This document shows, piece by piece, positions 39,001 through 48,000 of a stretch of 64,000 bases of DNA. The position numbers were made by a program. Source of the DNA: Candidatus Bathyarchaeota archaeon (GTDB taxonomy: Archaea > Thermoproteota > Bathyarchaeia > TCS64); contig CAVYVF010000002.1 in assembly GCA_963771885.1 (NCBI GenBank), positions 96,001 through 160,000 of the forward strand, given 5' to 3'. How positions within the stretch are numbered: the first letter of the stretch is position 1; every line of letters begins with the position of its first letter.

Positions 39001-42000
39001 TAGCCGCGGTTGACCTGGATCTTCCCATCCTTGTCCTTCCAAGGAACACGGAACTGGATGATCCTCTCTGGCTCAACCATGCGCTCAAGAATGGCGTTCT
39101 CCTGGTACTTAGGGAACTTCTTGATCGCGGGCTCGATGGTCGCCAGAACCTCATAGGCTGCCTGGTGGAACTCCTTCTGCAGGGGATCCTTCTCAACGAG
39201 GCTCTTGTAGATGCTCTCAATATACTTATCCAATTTTCGCGCCTCTCATAAACTCACGGTATCCCGTATATATTGCTATCCATCTTTCTCCATTATTAAT
39301 TTGATATTTATTTCCACTAAAATAAATACTGAATGTTATGATATTTTAAGAAAATTGTGTTCAATTTTATCGGATATGTAGATATTATTCGTTTATGTTA
39401 TTTGATGAAAGTTGACGTTTGTCATTACACTATTCTTATAATTTAGTCAAATTCAATTTTCCTTTTCGAAGCTTGTTTTATTTGTTCGACGATAGCTTTA
39501 AATCCATTCCTTAGAAAGCCTAGGAGATGGTATGTACAGGTAAGGTAGGTGTATTTACATACCCTTACTCCCCATCTGCGCGAATGGGATATAAACTTAG
39601 CTTTACCTGTTGGAAGATATCATCTTCAGACTCAATCAGGTTCGTGAGTGGATAGCATGGATAGCGAGTTACTTGTTGCGTTACTGGTCGGTCTCCCCGC
39701 GGTAGCGGGGCTGTTGTGTTATTTCCTCAAGAACAAGACCGCCATCAAGGCGATTGTTGGGATCAGCGCAGTTGCCTTGATCGGTTCGACGATTCTGCTT
39801 TATCAGAACGACGGCTTCGTGCTCAAGACGAGCACGTTAATCGATGACCTAGTCCTCATCGCGGACTTTGCCTTACTATTGTACTTCCTCTACATTGGGT
39901 GGCAGAAGGCAAACCTGCCAATCATCGGTTTGACTCTGACCTACATTGTTCCCCTTGCATACTTCGAGTACTGGCACTACAACGAGGAGATCACTCCTAC
40001 GATGTTTGCGGACCAGCTCTCAATCACTATGTCCCTCATTGTCGGCGTGATAGGCTCCATCGTGTGTATCTATGCGCTCAGATACATGGATGACCACTCA
40101 AAGCACATGGAGTCGCTGACTGGGCGCGACAGGTTCGTCCAGAAGGCGAACCAGCCCAAGTTCTTCCTCTTCATGCTTCTCCTCCTCGGCGCGATGAATG
40201 GGCTTGTCTATAGCAACGACTTGACGTGGCTCGCGTTCTTCTGGGAGATCACTACGCTCTGTTGCTATGAGCTCATCAGGTATGATGGGACAGAGGTAGC
40301 TGAGGCAAACGCCCAGCGCGCCCTCTGGATGGGCATAGTCGGAGGAGCCGCCTTCATGGGTGCACTCTGGCTGAGCTACCAATATCTTGGGATCCCGTCC
40401 CTAACGGCGCTCCTAGCCTCCCCCACCACGACCCCTGTCCTGCTGATATTCGCGCTGCTAGCCGTGGCGGCGTTTAGCAAGTCGGCTCAGCTACCATTCC
40501 AAAACTGGCTCCTCGGGGCCATGGTTGCACCTACACCCGTGTCGGCTCTCCTTCACTCAAGCACGATGGTCAATGCTGGTGTATACCTGATCCTCAGGAT
40601 CGCCCCCAAGCTAGTCGGGACGAATCTGAGCTACGGAATTGCTGCCGTCGGAATATTCACGTTCATGTTCACTTCCATCATGGCGCTGAACCAGCGTGTC
40701 TCCAAGTCTATACTCGCCTACTCCACGATCGGTAACCTAGGCCTAATGATCTTCTGCGCCAGCATGGCGACCCCACTTTCCTACTCCGCCGCTATTATTC
40801 TGCTCATCTTCCACTCGATGTCCAAGGGCCTGCTCTTCATGACGGCCGGGATAATTGAGAACAAGCTCCATAGCAGGAACATCGCCGACTGGCAGGGTTT
40901 GCTCGCGAGGCTGCCGTTCACGACGACCGTCATGATTATCGGCATTGTGAGCATGTTCCTCCCTATCTTCGGCGTGTTGCTTGGCAAGTGGGCGGCCGTA
41001 GGCGTCGTCTCCAACGCGCCTCTGCTCCCCGCACTTGCGATGATAATAATGCTTCTCATAGGAAGCTCGGCGAGCATGCTGTTCTGGGCGAAGTGGCTCG
41101 GTAACTTCATCATGGCACCCGCCGGTAAAGCCAAAGCCTCAGAGGAGGATTTACCCCTCATCTACAAGTTCACGCTACTCATCGTCCTCGCGTTGGACAT
41201 CGCAGCGAGCATAGGTTCAGGCTTCGTCATCGGGAACTTTGTCGTTCCAACGATGATCCGTCAGTTCACATGGGTCACCCCACCCGATCCATCGATATTC
41301 GTCGCGCAGCTGGGCGGTTTCCTAATCTGGCAGCTCTGGATCGCGATCGGCGCTGTCATCGCCTTTGGACTGATAATCAGCAGGACGAAGAAGGGACAGC
41401 TACAGCCTGCTTACCTATCAGGCGAAAACGTCGAAGACAACCCCATCGCCTTCAGAACGACGGGTGACACGGTTGTCGACACGACAGTGGCTGGCATGTT
41501 CTTCGACCCTACAATCTCTACCTCCCGCTGGGAGCGATGGGCCATCATTCTAAGCATCGGCCTAATCGCACTTACGTTCGCTCTGGTGGTGTTGTAAAAT
41601 GGCACAAGAACTCGACATGGCTTTACGCATCATATACGTACTATCCGCACCCATCATTGCGGGGCTACTAACAGGAATCGATAGGATTCTCACTGCAAGG
41701 ATGCAGAGCAGGATGGGTCCACCACTCCTTCAGCCATTTTATGATTTAATCAAGCTCTGGGGCAAGGAGCCGTTCATCTCAAACATGATCCAGCCAACGC
41801 TTGCATTCGGCTACCTCGCATTCACCGTGACGGGTATCTCCCTCATCGCATTGCAGGAGGATCTACTGTTCATACTCTACACCGTATTGATCGCAGACGT
41901 GTGCCTTGCTGTGGCCGCATACAGCACAACCTCCCCCTACAGTAACCTGGGTGGAAAACGTGAGCTTCTGGCGATGCTCTCAATCGAGCCCATCATGGTG

Positions 42001-45000: not shown

Positions 45001-48000
45001 ACGGACACCGAGGTGCCCGAGAGGGCAAAGTACCTTAGGGTGATCTGGACGGAACTCGGCCGTCTGCAGAGTCACCTACTCTGGCTCGGCCTCTTCGCTG
45101 ACGCGATAGGGTTCGAGAGTCTCTTCATGCAGATCTGGCGCGACAGGGAGGTTATACTTACCCTGAATGAGAAAACTAATGGCCACAGAATACACCTCTC
45201 TACAAACGCCATCGGAGGGGCGAGGAAGGACATCGACGACTCCCTTGCTAAGGAGTATCGGAAGGACCTTGAGATTGTACGCTCAAAGATTAGAGTTCTC
45301 GAGCCAGTCTTTTACAAGGACAAGTCCTTCAGACAGCTCACTGAGGGCAAGGGCATACTCCCAAAGAGTCAAGCCAACCTCATGGGTGCTGTCGGTCCCG
45401 TGATAAGGGGTAGCGGCGTCGCCCAAGATATGAGATCCCTCGACCCGACATTCAAAGCGCTCGACTTTAAACCCGTCGTCTACGAGAGCTGCGACAGCTA
45501 CGCGAGGACTCTAGTCCGTTTCGACGAGGTCTTCGCGAGCATCGACCTGATAATCAGGGCGCTTGACCAGATGCCCGAGGGTCCTATCCTTAACAAGAAT
45601 GAAAAGTTCCCCGAGGGTACAGCCATAGTGAGGACGGAACAGCCTCGTGGAGAACTATTCTACTACCTCGAAGGGAACGGCACGAACAAGCTTAGTCGAG
45701 TCAAGATCAGGACACCGACGGGCGCAAACATTCCCCCTCTAGTGTCGATGCTCATCGGCCACGAGCTGCCTGATATCCCCGTCATCGTGCATAGCATAGA
45801 CCCCTGCATAAGCTGCACTGAGCGCTACGTGCAAGTTAGGAAGGAGGCGGACTAGGATGCCGGAGATGTGGAAGGAAGTCCTCAAGAACCTAGTAAGTAA
45901 GCCTGCGACCGTCAACTACCCGTTTGAGAAGCCTACGCCGATGCCGGGGACGCGTGGCGCCCTCACCTGGGATATGAGCAGGTGCGACCAGTGCCAGGAC
46001 TGTGAGCGTGTCTGCCCCAGTATGGCAATCAAGGTTTTCCCCGAGGAGAAGAAGATAGAGTACCACCCATTCAAGTGCCTCTTCTGCTACATCTGCATCG
46101 ACAACTGCATGCAGCAGGCCATCATCGGGACCGAAGTCGTGCGTGCGCCTGAGACCTCGAAGGTCGTCGAGACCTACGAAGTCTCAAAAGCGTAAGTTTT
46201 CTTCTCTCGAATTAGTCGATCGTTTTTATTTTAAGTTGATTTTCCGTAAAGCCATAATTGGGGATGTTGAACCCTGAGAATTATACAGAGGCTTTGCCCG
46301 TGAGGAACTCTATGATCATCTGAGGCGACCCCTCGATCTCGACCTCTATCGGCCCAAGCGGGGACTTGCTTGCGTGGTAGATGCTGACGTGGTTCGCGTA
46401 TGCTGCCTGCCTGTTTAAGTGGAATGTGACCTTCTCGTTCTTCGCCGCCCAGCGGCTGAGCATTGCGCGGGCGGCGTCCCTTATCTTATCGCTGGCTATC
46501 CTTTGCTTTAACTGGCGGAGTGCGTCGATGCCCTCAGCCTCGAGGACGATGTAGGTGACGCCGTGCTCCTTGCTGCGTCTGAGGGGAAAGTTTCCAAACA
46601 GGTTTGTAATTGCCCTCTCTAGCTTCTCCTCGCTCTCGGTGGGGTTTATGTGCGCCTTGGCGGTTACCCTGACCTCAGCCATTCCTTATCGTCACCATGA
46701 TCTCGTCGAAGGCGGGTTTTAGGCTGCCGATGCCGTCGTCATTCTTGATCATGTAGTCGCTTGAGGCGATGGCGTCCCCGATGCCGAATCCGAGCTCGCG
46801 GCGCTCTCGCTCCTTGAACTCCTCCCACGTCTTCGGGTCGTCGCTGCGGCCCCGGCGTGTGAGCCTCTTGTAGCGGCTGAGCGGGCTAGCCCAGAGGGCG
46901 ATGAGGACGACGTCGAACTCCGCCTTGAAGGCGTCGACCTCGGCGATGCTTCTAATGCCGTCGACGACTATGAGGCCGTCTGGCCCTTTCTTCAGCATCT
47001 CCACGCATCGGCGGGCAACAGCGTCTGGGCCCTCCTTCCTAATCTCCTCTGCGAGGTGCCCTATGTTCTCCCGCGTGGGCTCTAGCCCTTTGCTCTTGGC
47101 GAGTTCGCGGATGACATCTCCCATGGTGATGACACGTAGACCCGACTCACGGATCAGAGTAGAAAGCGTAGTCTTTCCGGAGCCGGCCATCCCTGTCAGG
47201 AGGATGAGTCGTCTCCGGGTCATCCTCAGCCCATCCTCTCAAGCCCGTCTCTACGCGTCTTAATGAAGACGTTTGTGAGACCCGTCTTTAGAGCTTCCTG
47301 GGCGAGGCTCATCATTGTCTCCCTGCTAGGCGGTTGCTTCTCTTTAAGGGTTTGGCTGAGGACCTCGCCAAGGTTATCGAACTGCTGAAGGTAGTAGACG
47401 GCGCAGCGGCCCTTTATTGACTGGGCTATGCTGGCGATGTAAGCTGGCTCGTCGCTTAATCCCGGGGCGACAGTTGTACGCACCTCCATCTGAATGCCCA
47501 GCTCCTTTGCAAGGTCGAGGCAGTATTCCACGGCTTCGACTGATGCCTCGCCGAGGTCGTTTCGTCCTGTGACCCTGCCGTAGTCCCCAGGATTTAACGG
47601 CGCTTTGACATCGAGGGCGACGCGGTCTATGTAACTGCTTCGGAGAATTCTGTCGAGGTTCTCCTTGACGCTGCCGTTCGTATCGAGCATAACCTTCAGG
47701 CCGCGGCTCTTTACCAGCTTCGCCGCCTCGATTATAGCGTCTGGCTGTAGGACGGGTTCACCTCCGGTGAAGACGACCGCATCGTTAATGACCTTGTTCG
47801 CCTCGAGGCGCTCTTTGAGCAATTCGAGATCGATCTCCCTGCCCGCGTCGAGTGAGATGAGAGCTGAGTTCTGACAGTATGGGCACCTATAATTGCAGCC
47901 GGCACAAAAGACGATTAGGCTGACGTTGCCATACCAGTCGACGGTAGACATGTCAGTTATACCGCCGACCCGGAGCCTAACCTCTGGGTTCATTTGCTAA

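Follow-up and report, generated by a model that had tools for sequence, protein, structure and literature searches.

Analysis of a 64,000-nt stretch of DNA from Candidatus Bathyarchaeota archaeon, an inhabitant of sediment (GCA_963771885.1, contig CAVYVF010000002.1; hereafter the window, in whose coordinates contig position 96,001 is position 1) revealed an operon predicted to encode an Ech-type six-subunit group-4 membrane-bound [NiFe] hydrogenase, with an EchD::GltD fusion in place of EchD. Judged from its anatomy, the complex may be an ion-translocating, NADP(H)-linked Ech hydrogenase, a reading to which we assign a probability of roughly 0.55. If this is correct, the operon would specify a membrane hydrogenase that exchanges electrons between H2 and NADPH while moving ions. 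No published description of an EchD::GltD hydrogenase was found in the literature searched.

ORF calling and family profiles placed six closely packed genes in the echABCDEF order at 39648-46195 on the forward strand, with gaps of 1-2 nt or overlaps of 8 nt, and Pfam and NCBIfam assigned all six products to families expected of an Ech-type enzyme. The first gene (39648..41597, +) encodes an EchA-like, antiporter-type membrane subunit of 649 aa (PF00361, E 1e-45, and PF00662); its top NCBIfam match, hydrogenase 4 subunit D, fell under the cut-off of that model, and its best solved relative in the PDB sequence search was MrpA (7qru_A, 1.8e-43). It is followed by the genes for an EchB/NuoH-like membrane subunit of 288 aa (41599..42465, +; PF00146 at residues 13-282, E 5.8e-43) and an EchC/NuoB-like small subunit of 152 aa (42467..42925, +; PF01058, E 8.8e-31), whose Cys22, Cys25, Cys89 and Cys119, all aligned with those of MbhJ (6cfw_J, 2.8e-50), would hold the proximal [4Fe-4S] cluster. 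Downstream of the fusion gene (42918..44723, +) lie echE (44716..45855, +), encoding the [NiFe] large subunit of 379 aa (PF00346 and PF00374), and echF (45857..46195, +), encoding a 2x[4Fe-4S] subunit of 112 aa (Fer4 families). EchE retains both NiFe cysteine motifs, CGIC at 77-80 and CISC at 364-367; its solved relatives include 6cfw_L (4.2e-71) and 7z0s_E (9.7e-65), and close homologues are named 'ech hydrogenase subunit E' in JGI. EchF is of normal size, its eight cysteines are invariant across 27 orthologues, and its closest solved relative is MbhN (6cfw_N, 3.8e-14). The Ech-type six-gene anatomy and the two NiFe motifs claimed in the earlier note were confirmed, with all cofactor ligands intact and conserved. 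The maturation genes for HypD and two HycI-type proteases are present in the genome. The Pfam scan of the operon and its neighbours found no NuoE/F/G-like genes in the operon, and its ORFs and family matches included neither an additional ferredoxin-like gene nor a further NuoC-type gene; the two other PF00329 matches in the genome belong to separate complexes encoded on contigs C22 and C7.

The fusion gene encodes 601 aa from a GTG at 42918; residues are numbered accordingly, with an offset of 3 relative to the earlier count of 598 aa from the ATG at 42927. Its product is laid out as an EchD/NuoC-like domain, a conserved linker and a GltD/NfnL-type module, and the three Pfam families reported earlier on one ORF were recovered in a single open frame: Complex1_30kDa (PF00329) at 22-103 (E 5e-10, 40.4 bits versus a cut-off of 22.5), Fer4_20 (PF14691) at 140-213 and Pyr_redox_2 (PF07992) at 230-519. 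The EchD/NuoC-like domain occupies residues 1-130 (42918..43307, +), with a folded core at about 15-115; its four PDB matches were all weak (best 6u8y_K, 0.024) and all were NuoC-family chains. In the AF2 monomer model, pLDDT was about 85 over residues 20-100 and below 50 at 117-147, 177-199 and 539-601, which are the Fe-S regions and the junction. Conservation was evaluated in an alignment of 41 fusion proteins sharing 56-97% identity. The invariant residues of the NuoC-like domain include E90, N91, E92, Q94 and D95, and those of the junction (residues 122-140; 43281..43337, +) are T122, L123, K125, G129, P132, R136, F137 and G139. The retention of NuoC-family invariants together with a conserved junction indicates that the NuoC part is selected as a subunit.

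The module opens with the main part of its Fe-S domain (residues 140-213; 43335..43556, +), corresponding to Fer4_20 profile positions 31-107, and continues with the FAD and NADP(H) binding domains (residues 230-519; 43605..44474, +; PF07992, E 1.4e-37). Profile positions 1-29 are located not on the N-terminal side of the module but in the C-terminal tail of the fusion (residues 571-601; 44628..44720, +; E 5.9e-4, 20.6 bits, under the family cut-off), so that the Fe-S domain is permuted. In the alignments, the RCxxC of 9bov_A and 9n5u_A falls on this tail; R593, C594, W595, C597, D598, W599, N600 and E601 are invariant, as are C141, C145, C184, C188, C192 and K207. The last of these aligns with the lysine at chain position 173 of 9n5u_A, which is probably the Lys-165 cluster ligand of PMC12018979. 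Overall, the module carries a predicted FAD site, a predicted NADPH site and putative ligands for two [4Fe-4S] clusters (seven cysteines and Lys207).

As the earlier note maintained, the fusion is real. A total of 45 protein clusters of 411-602 aa matched fusion residues 1-135 at 51-97% identity, all of them carrying the GltD families and 41 carrying PF00329. Full-length frames, defined as matches beginning at or before residue 23, were detected in 43 of 401 Bathyarchaeia genomes, namely the genome under study, 15 of the 17 other genomes of the genus, 22 further genomes of family f1 and five of family f9, in which one more match was interrupted by a contig end. These counts closely reproduced the earlier ones. 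The restriction to two families reported earlier holds inside Bathyarchaeia but not overall, as three genomes from a second class in the phylum and one Planctomycetota MAG also carry the fusion. Frame length ranged from 590 to 655 aa across all these groups, and four representative clusters at 42-52% identity had an identical architecture. The six-gene order was the same in 10 of 10 related loci in which the operon is complete, and two truncated loci agreed; these loci span two Bathyarchaeia families, the second class and the Planctomycetota MAG. The idea that a frameshift, misassembly or miscalled gene had joined separate echD and gltD-like genes has a negligible probability: nothing was found in its support, and it is refuted by the single stop-free frame in this genome, its recurrence across genomes and classes, the invariant junction residues, and an RNA-library contig that crosses the junction (43122-43388).

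In the PDB sequence search, the module aligned end to end with 9bov_A (6.8e-102; titled 'Molybdopterin oxidoreductase' in the output), 9n5u_A (4.1e-96) and 8oh5_C (2.8e-89), and canonical NfnL chains matched less well (4ylf_B, 3.2e-81; 5jca_L, 6.8e-72). The 9bov and 5jca matches listed earlier were thereby reproduced; the 9n5u NfnA, previously attributed to Sporomusa, derives from Thermococcus sibiricus (PMC12018979). As described in the same paper, the FAD in the corresponding module of T. sibiricus NfnABC (9N5U) is the binding site of NADP(H) and supplies a [4Fe-4S] chain, the bifurcation site being the FMN of NfnB rather than this FAD. By sequence, the nearest relative of the fused flavoprotein is the NADP(H) entry module of the Bfu-type NfnABC/Stn transhydrogenases. 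Four motifs, GGGPxG (235-240), GGGN (364-367), YRR (388-390) and EMPA (394-397), are invariant in the 41 fusions and aligned with 9bov_A and 9n5u_A. Homology supports NADP(H) as the probable nucleotide of the fused module, because residues 139-598 align with the NADP(H) modules of solved Nfn/Stn enzymes and keep YRR...EMPA. The same permuted module was also found behind Fer4_11, Fer2_4, Fer2_3, NADH_4Fe-4S and RnfB-like N-terminal Fe-S domains, and it seems to behave as a portable NADPH plug.

In the proposed electron path, NADPH would dock on the fused module at its second Rossmann fold and transfer a hydride to FAD, from which single electrons would pass through the two [4Fe-4S] clusters of the module. 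By way of a presumed contact between the flavoprotein and EchF, they would then enter the two EchF clusters, the proximal cluster of EchC and finally, in EchE, the [NiFe] site, at which protons would be reduced to H2; the reverse path would also be possible. The redox step would be coupled to ion movement via EchB and EchA, as in Ech and MBH, and the EchD subunit may serve as the electron-input/output arm for NADP(H). A glutamate dehydrogenase gene (38037..39233, -; PF00208 and PF02812) lies divergently beside echA in all 12 genomes of the genus examined, with no match in the fetched flanks of nine loci outside the genus. Its position within the genus leads us to prefer the direction in which NADPH is oxidised and H2 evolved, given the very low H2 partial pressures found in sediments. 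The NADP+/NADPH couple lies at -320 mV and the H+/H2 couple at -414 mV at 1 bar. According to our own arithmetic, the latter would shift to about -266 mV at 1 Pa H2, making H2 formation from NADPH exergonic by roughly 10-20 kJ/mol. NADPH would be unable to drive H2 formation at 1 bar, and the favoured direction therefore hinges on the assumed low H2.

The known partner of Ech is ferredoxin, and the use of ferredoxin by classical Ech was counted against the NADP(H)-linked reading. A group 4e hydrogenase (HydDB) of a TCS64 MAG (order/family), possibly another gene, has been read as ferredoxin-coupled in PMC9534799. It is possible, although rather unlikely, that EchF still offers ferredoxin a docking site, like that of classical Ech, with the fused module as a second port; such a hub could form H2 from ferredoxin and NADPH jointly, in a confurcation-like manner, or could be a membrane-coupled ferredoxin:NADP+ oxidoreductase venting surplus as H2. 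Two donors would fit the normal-sized EchF with all eight cysteines and its kinship to MbhN of the ferredoxin-dependent MBH, the JGI label of the large-subunit homologues, the group 4e classification of the TCS64 enzyme (PMC9534799) and, on textbook potentials, the weakness of NADPH alone as a donor at higher H2 pressure. However, the sequence bears no mark of a ferredoxin site, the operon lacks an additional ferredoxin-like gene, and the closest relatives of the module are plain NADP(H) entries into a cluster chain (PMC12018979).

NfnL-type flavin bifurcation within the membrane complex, in which FAD would split the NADPH electron pair between the NiFe site and a second, higher-potential acceptor, is very improbable. 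It would agree with the homology of the module to NfnL, which has a bifurcating FAD (4ylf_B, 5jca_L), and with a stand-alone NfnL/SudA-like gene of 473 aa (35517..36938, -; Fer4_20 and PF07992) located 2.7 kb upstream of the operon. Yet the fused module is nearer to the NfnABC/Stn type, in which this FAD is not the site of bifurcation (PMC12018979), and shares its permuted, putatively Lys-ligated Fe-S domain, and neither an NfnS/SudB-type partner nor another high-potential branch was found in the operon or the neighbours scanned. The stand-alone protein is not permuted, its residues 23-131 matching Fer4_20 positions 1-110, and its gene was present beyond the glutamate dehydrogenase gene at seven of ten additional loci from the genus. 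Catalytic promiscuity is a general trait of GltD/SudA-type flavoproteins, and polysulfide/sulfur reduction has been reported for SudA-type enzymes. Sud-type activity in Bathyarchaeia is discussed in PMC11631310. Both points would suit a transfer of H2 electrons to another soluble acceptor (polysulfide/sulfur, oxygen or disulfide), with NADP(H) not being the physiological partner, which we consider very improbable: the invariance of GGGN, YRR and EMPA in the 41 sequences points to selection on nucleotide binding, and no sulfur-handling genes adjoined the operon among the neighbours scanned.

The Ech of Methanosarcina barkeri is a group 4e enzyme of six subunits (echABCDEF). The putative NADP(H)-linked hydrogenase resembles Ech in its six subunit types and gene order, its NiFe CxxC motifs, NuoB-type cluster and 2x[4Fe-4S] subunit, and its single antiporter-like and NuoH-like membrane subunits. 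In contrast, EchD is normally small and stand-alone, e.g., 14 kDa for Ech2D of Thermoanaerobacter kivui (PMC4320612), and here it carries a 470-residue NADPH/FAD/2x[4Fe-4S] module. The MBH of Pyrococcus furiosus (6CFW) provided the closest solved relatives of the large (4.2e-71), small (2.8e-50) and EchF-like (3.8e-14) subunits. MBH comprises 14 subunits, with a full Mrp module, a stand-alone NuoC-like MbhK and no flavoprotein, whereas the fusion operon has six genes and includes a flavoprotein. MBH is ferredoxin-dependent (PMC8165549).

The NfnABC/Stn modules (9N5U, T. sibiricus NfnA; 8OH5; 9BOV) are the best sequence matches of the fused module (residues 139-598) and share with it the C-terminal RCxxC, YRR...EMPA and the lysine aligned with a cluster ligand, and their FAD is the NADP(H) entry feeding [4Fe-4S] clusters (PMC12018979). 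In those soluble bifurcating enzymes, the module is inserted in a NuoG/FDH-like subunit with NuoF/NuoE-like partners, whereas in the present membrane hydrogenase, whose operon is devoid of NuoE/F/G-like genes, it stands C-terminal to a NuoC-like domain. In the mbx-like operons of Thermotoga and proteobacteria, too, a complex-I-like membrane module lacking NuoEFG is accompanied by a GltD-type NAD(P)H flavoprotein, but, according to PMC4758237, the gltD-related flavoprotein is a separate subunit replacing NuoI and the NuoD homologue lacks NiFe ligands; the present operon retains NuoI/EchF, has intact NiFe ligands and joins its flavoprotein to NuoC in one chain. The earlier description of an independently acquired analogue of the N-module of complex I is reasonable as a description, although it has a precedent in the separate-subunit gltD of the mbx-like operons (PMC4758237) and the restriction to two families applies within Bathyarchaeia only. 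The role would be alike, i.e., a nicotinamide-nucleotide flavin site and Fe-S wire atop a NuoBCDI core, but the proteins are unrelated (FMN/NuoF in NuoEFG, FAD/GltD here), the nucleotide is NADH there and probably NADPH here, and the attachment point differs. Hfo, a group 4g hydrogenase with 11 subunits from termite-gut Bathyarchaeia (PMC7886697), is likewise a Bathyarchaeia group-4 enzyme but a different complex; that paper describes no flavoprotein fusion, the words 'GltD', 'NADPH' and 'fusion' having 0 occurrences each. A locus of this 11-subunit type with NiFe cysteines is also present in the source genome, on contig C22.

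Six ORFs on the plus strand (window 39648-46195), with gaps of 1-2 nt or overlaps of 8 nt between neighbours, gave Pfam and NCBIfam matches for 6/6 subunit types, so that a full EchA-F set was present in the echABCDEF order. The first three genes encode an antiporter-like subunit (EchA, 649 aa; PF00361, E = 1e-45; nearest solved chain MrpA 7qru_A, 1.8e-43), a NuoH-like subunit (EchB, 288 aa; PF00146, 5.8e-43) and a NuoB-like small subunit (EchC, 152 aa; PF01058, 8.8e-31), the last of which matched MbhJ (2.8e-50) with four Cys aligned. The fourth gene (42918-44723, + strand, GTG start) encodes a 601-aa fusion protein with three unrelated family sets. 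It is followed by the genes for the NuoD/[NiFe] large subunit (EchE, 379 aa; PF00346, 4.4e-53; PF00374, 5.9e-12) and for a 2x[4Fe-4S] protein (EchF, 112 aa; MbhN match 3.8e-14). EchE contains both NiFe-binding CxxC motifs, L1 (RVCGICNYIHG, residues 74-84, CGIC at 77) and L2 (DPCISCTER, residues 362-370, CISC at 364), in alignment with MbhL. The nearest solved chains to EchE were MbhL of Pyrococcus MBH (6cfw_L, 4.2e-71) and HycE (7z0s_E, 9.7e-65), and its close homologues carry the JGI name 'ech hydrogenase subunit E'. The six subunit types and their order are shared with Ech; the operon differs in lacking a small free EchD, the sole NuoC-type sequence in the operon being the N-terminal 130 residues of the 601-aa fusion. 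The complex is predicted to resemble Ech and MBH in its working; of the Ech features, the NiFe motifs, the six-subunit set and maturation genes were found, and the free small EchD was not. Searches for HypD and HycI identified NiFe maturation genes elsewhere in the genome, namely HypD (contig C22, 114120-115154; E = 4.7e-139) and two HycI-family proteases.

In the fusion, Pfam placed Complex1_30kDa at residues 22-103 (E = 5e-10; 40.4 bits versus a cut-off of 22.5), Fer4_20 at residues 140-213 and Pyr_redox_2 (PF07992) at residues 230-519 (E = 1.4e-37). A single-sequence search of the NuoC part against the PDB returned weak matches (best E = 0.024), all of them to NuoC chains, and the NuoC assignment therefore rests on Pfam and on operon position. 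The FAD- and NAD(P)H-binding Rossmann folds of the flavoprotein part, hereafter the arm, were recognised by PF07992 and by the motifs GGGPxG (235-240) and GGGN (364-367). A profile search of the genome aligned residues 140-213 with positions 31-107 of Fer4_20, while positions 1-29 gave a weak match (E = 5.9e-4, under the family cut-off) to the far C-terminus of the chain (window 44628-44714). The order of this split match indicates that, compared with Pfam Fer4_20, the Fe-S domain is circularly permuted, a point that the earlier note had not raised. The predicted course of the chain is thus out of the Fe-S domain, through the FAD and NADPH domains and back, with RCWRC completing a cluster; the chain terminates four residues past RCxxC. 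In an AlphaFold2 model of the fusion monomer (mean pLDDT 73.3, pTM 0.63), the junction and every Fe-S region scored below 50 pLDDT.

Conservation was evaluated in an alignment of 41 fusion proteins with 56-97% identity to that of the window. The residues C141, C145, C184, C188, C192, C594, C597, K207 and R208 were invariant, as were the FAD motif at 235-240, GGGN at 364-367, YRR at 388-390 and EMPA at 394-397. Eight invariant ligands are thus available for two [4Fe-4S] clusters, seven Cys and K207, the role of the Lys as a ligand being predicted from PMC12018979. In the NuoC part, a block comprising E90, N91, E92, Q94 and D95 was invariant. The same was true of T122, L123, K125, G129, P132, R136, F137 and G139 at the junction, which argues against the junction being a loose linker. 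The C-terminal nine residues, including CWRCDWNE (594-601, window 44697-44720), were invariant save for R596. The conservation of this tail reaches past the two Cys ligands, which hints at a contact surface or at a role for the C-terminal carboxylate.

The best solved matches to the arm (residues 139-598, including the C-terminal RCxxC) were 9bov_A (6.8e-102), 9n5u_A, annotated 'NfnA' (4.1e-96), and 8oh5_C (2.8e-89), with the canonical NfnL chains more distant (4ylf_B, 3.2e-81; 5jca_L, 6.8e-72). The conserved YRR...EMPA stretch of the fusion aligned with 9bov_A and with the NADP(H)-binding NfnA of Thermococcus sibiricus, and the Arg residues of the YRR stretch are presumably binders of the 2'-phosphate, a possible mark of specificity for NADPH over NADH. 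The 9N5U structure is that of the T. sibiricus NfnABC, in which an inserted NfnL-like FAD domain of NfnA binds NADP(H) and supplies the [4Fe-4S] clusters A7 (ligated by three Cys and Lys-165) and A6, and in which the bifurcation site is the FMN of NfnB (PMC12018979). In the HMMER alignment, K207 of the fusion pairs with a Lys at position 173 of 9n5u_A; as this chain has 963 residues versus 955 in the paper, position 173 was taken as Lys-165, which would make K207 its counterpart.

A survey of 1.84 billion representative proteins detected the permuted module (Fer4_20 from profile position ~30) behind at least five N-terminal Fe-S types, Fer4_11, Fer2_4, Fer2_3, NADH_4Fe-4S and RnfB-like (proteins P0171-P0305). 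The permuted GltD module appears to be a portable and widely reused NADPH plug-in, with the NuoC fusion as one of its combinations. In the Bfu-type NfnABC/Stn enzymes, which are bifurcating transhydrogenases, the module is inserted in a NuoG/FDH-like chain accompanied by NuoF- and NuoE-like subunits, whereas no NuoE/F/G families were found in the operon or in the scanned neighbour ORFs. NfnSL (NfnAB) has an NfnS/SudB-type partner with a [2Fe-2S] cluster and a second FAD, and no such family was found in the operon or in the 18 neighbour ORFs scanned. Judged by sequence, the arm belongs to the GltD/NfnL superfamily and, within it, to the NfnABC/Stn sub-type; the whole complex is not an enzyme of the Nfn or of the Bfu type.

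Residues 1-135 of the fusion matched 45 protein clusters at 51-97% identity, of which 45/45 carried GltD families and 41/45 carried PF00329. Full-length fusion frames were present in 43/401 Bathyarchaeia genomes: the source genome, 15/17 other genomes of its genus, 22 more of its family (f1) and five of a second family (f9), in which one further copy was cut by a contig end. Three Bathyarchaeia genomes contained two full-length copies. Together with the six-gene order, the single 601-aa chain and the Pfam sets, these counts bore out the earlier note's description of an Ech-type operon with EchD fused to an NADPH-type flavoprotein. The distribution proved wider than the two Bathyarchaeia families to which that note had confined it, as the fusion also occurred in a Planctomycetota MAG and, among 401 genomes sampled from the phylum, fusion-length frames were found in three genomes of one non-Bathyarchaeia family (f44). 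Four representatives of clusters at the 50% level, with 42-52% identity, had the architecture of the window fusion; one of them is named Candidatus Verstraetearchaeota by NCBI, and the cluster of another includes a Planctomycetota MAG protein. The bacterial branch comprised five clusters, two of which are named Planctomycetes or Planctomycetota. Two of its proteins, P0335 (716 aa) and P0336 (727 aa), carry an extra response-regulator receiver domain (PF00072) in precomputed Pfam annotation. A doubled fused operon was noted on separate contigs in some Bathyarchaeia of genus g2 (G234, G138 and G147; also G156 and G189, as judged by the large subunit), the large subunits being 59-65% identical to EchE of the window.

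The six-gene order was kept in 10/10 related loci with all six genes, that is, 7/7 Bathyarchaeia loci with enough flank, two of another class and one of the Planctomycetota MAG; one further locus of the other class was cut and is counted apart from its two complete loci. A tree of 27 proteins placed the archaeal fusions in one supported clade (100/99), with those of f44 nested between the two Bathyarchaeia families (100/100). Consistently, one f44 fusion was 58% identical to the window protein, compared with 48-51% for the f9 copies. The nesting points to lateral transfer of the operon as a unit. A single origin of all NuoC fusions was considered and set aside, since the deep nodes of the same tree did not resolve (48/64) and several long branches were flagged. 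Genome G024 (EchE 67% identical to that of the window, best fusion match 3.9e-72) was likewise discarded as a natural unfused variant, its contig stopping right after the large-subunit gene.

Upstream of the operon, a glutamate dehydrogenase (GDH) gene (38037-39233, - strand) diverges from echA; farther out in the window come a stand-alone NfnL/SudA-like gene of the canonical kind and, beyond it, two genes for HdrA-MvhD fusions and one for an MvhA-like protein. The GDH-echA arrangement was present in 12/12 genomes of the genus examined, and no GDH match was obtained in the fetched flanks of nine loci outside the genus. The MvhA-like [NiFe] large subunit (466 aa, PF00374) and the two following HdrA-like proteins (774 and 804 aa, C-terminal MvhD/FlpD) are encoded at 27991-34123 (+), 5 kb before the ech operon, in an apparent hydrogenase/Hdr cluster of the group 3c type. 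The NfnL/SudA-like gene (35517-36938, -) is of the non-permuted type and lies beyond GDH in 7/10 further loci of the genus; no NfnS/SudB-type partner for it was found among the scanned neighbour ORFs.

The fusion itself is real, and its anatomy and conservation are firm; of the earlier interpretation as a hydrogenase wired to NADP(H), this much stands, and the function is what we infer. Electrons would pass from NADPH to FAD, through the arm's two [4Fe-4S] clusters to the two of EchF, and from there by way of the EchC cluster to the NiFe site, and ion movement via EchB and EchA would follow, by analogy with Ech and MBH. Conserved ligands back each of these predicted cofactor sites. The transfer from the arm to EchF is a proposed link; co-folding of fusion residues 131-601 with EchF from separate alignments, run with no controls, scored 0.28 against a mark of 0.32, which counts neither for nor against the link. 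Based on textbook potentials, NADP+ reduction by H2 would be exergonic by ~18 kJ/mol at 1 bar H2, and NADPH oxidation to H2 would be exergonic by roughly 10-20 kJ/mol at ~1 Pa H2, so that either direction could be coupled to about one ion. As GDH lies next door in the genus, we favour NADPH disposal as H2 as the physiological direction.

The boldest reading, to which we tentatively give a probability of about 45%, is that of a minimal respiratory-type enzyme, a six-subunit complex I relative in which a portable, non-homologous NADPH/FAD/Fe-S arm fused on NuoC/EchD would link the NADPH/H2 couple to an ion gradient without a further carrier, and which would have spread laterally from one archaeal class to another and to bacteria. 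The main rival of the electron path proposed above, that ferredoxin still docks on EchF and that the arm is a second port, seems to us rather doubtful. A hydrogenase of a TCS64 MAG, which may not be the gene of the window, was assigned to HydDB class 4e and read as ferredoxin-coupled (PMC9534799). Bifurcation of the NfnL type at the flavin of the fusion is unlikely, because neither the operon nor the neighbours scanned encode a second branch, and because the nearest relatives of the arm bifurcate at another site and not at this flavin.

To our knowledge, group 4 hydrogenases have been taken as ferredoxin-, formate- or CO-linked, and a built-in NADP(H) arm would be a new coupling mode for them. 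No description of an EchD/NuoC-GltD fusion was found in the main texts of the open-access papers searched. Source databases label the protein 'FAD-dependent oxidoreductase' or 'glutamate synthase beta subunit-like', and present annotation pipelines overlook the fusion. A gltD-related flavoprotein has been reported in mbx-like operons of Thermotoga and proteobacteria, where it replaces NuoI and the NuoD homologue is without NiFe ligands; these operons are the nearest precedent for the idea, yet of a different construction (PMC4758237). Hfo, another group 4 enzyme of Bathyarchaeia, is described without a flavoprotein fusion (PMC7886697). If the boldest reading is true, sediment fermenters could get rid, as H2, of the NADPH formed when amino acids are oxidised, and would conserve energy in doing so. 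A built-in NADP(H) arm would alter redox-balance models for Bathyarchaeia and other sediment anaerobes. The complex would then be a living parallel to the acquisition of the N-module by complex I, a natural experiment in grafting an electron-input module onto the NuoBCDI core, the step by which complex I arose. The question lends itself directly to a structural test, given the rigid conserved junction and the invariant CWRCDWNE at the C-terminus.

Five runs among the RNA libraries contained small shares (0.05-0.10) of the sequence words. In four runs from two studies, short contigs 90-99% alike were recovered across all six genes, some of them running across the domain junction or from one gene into the next (42683-42935, 43122-43388 and 44457-44798); as DNA may be present in such libraries, the contigs are no proof of a transcript and represent a weak hint. 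Elsewhere in the source genome, contig C22 (313000-324300) carries a complex-I-like locus of the 11-subunit type, in which NuoD retains the NiFe Cys (CGIC/CFSC) and a HycI-type protease gene adjoins, and contig C7 (72405-73952) carries a complex-I-like module with a NuoCD fusion (515 aa) lacking the NiFe Cys. Within the window, the G+C content dips to 0.48-0.50 at 34001-36000, 38001-40000 and 54001-58000, compared with 0.55-0.62 elsewhere; the first dip includes a segment (34246-35191) with short ORFs only and no family match.
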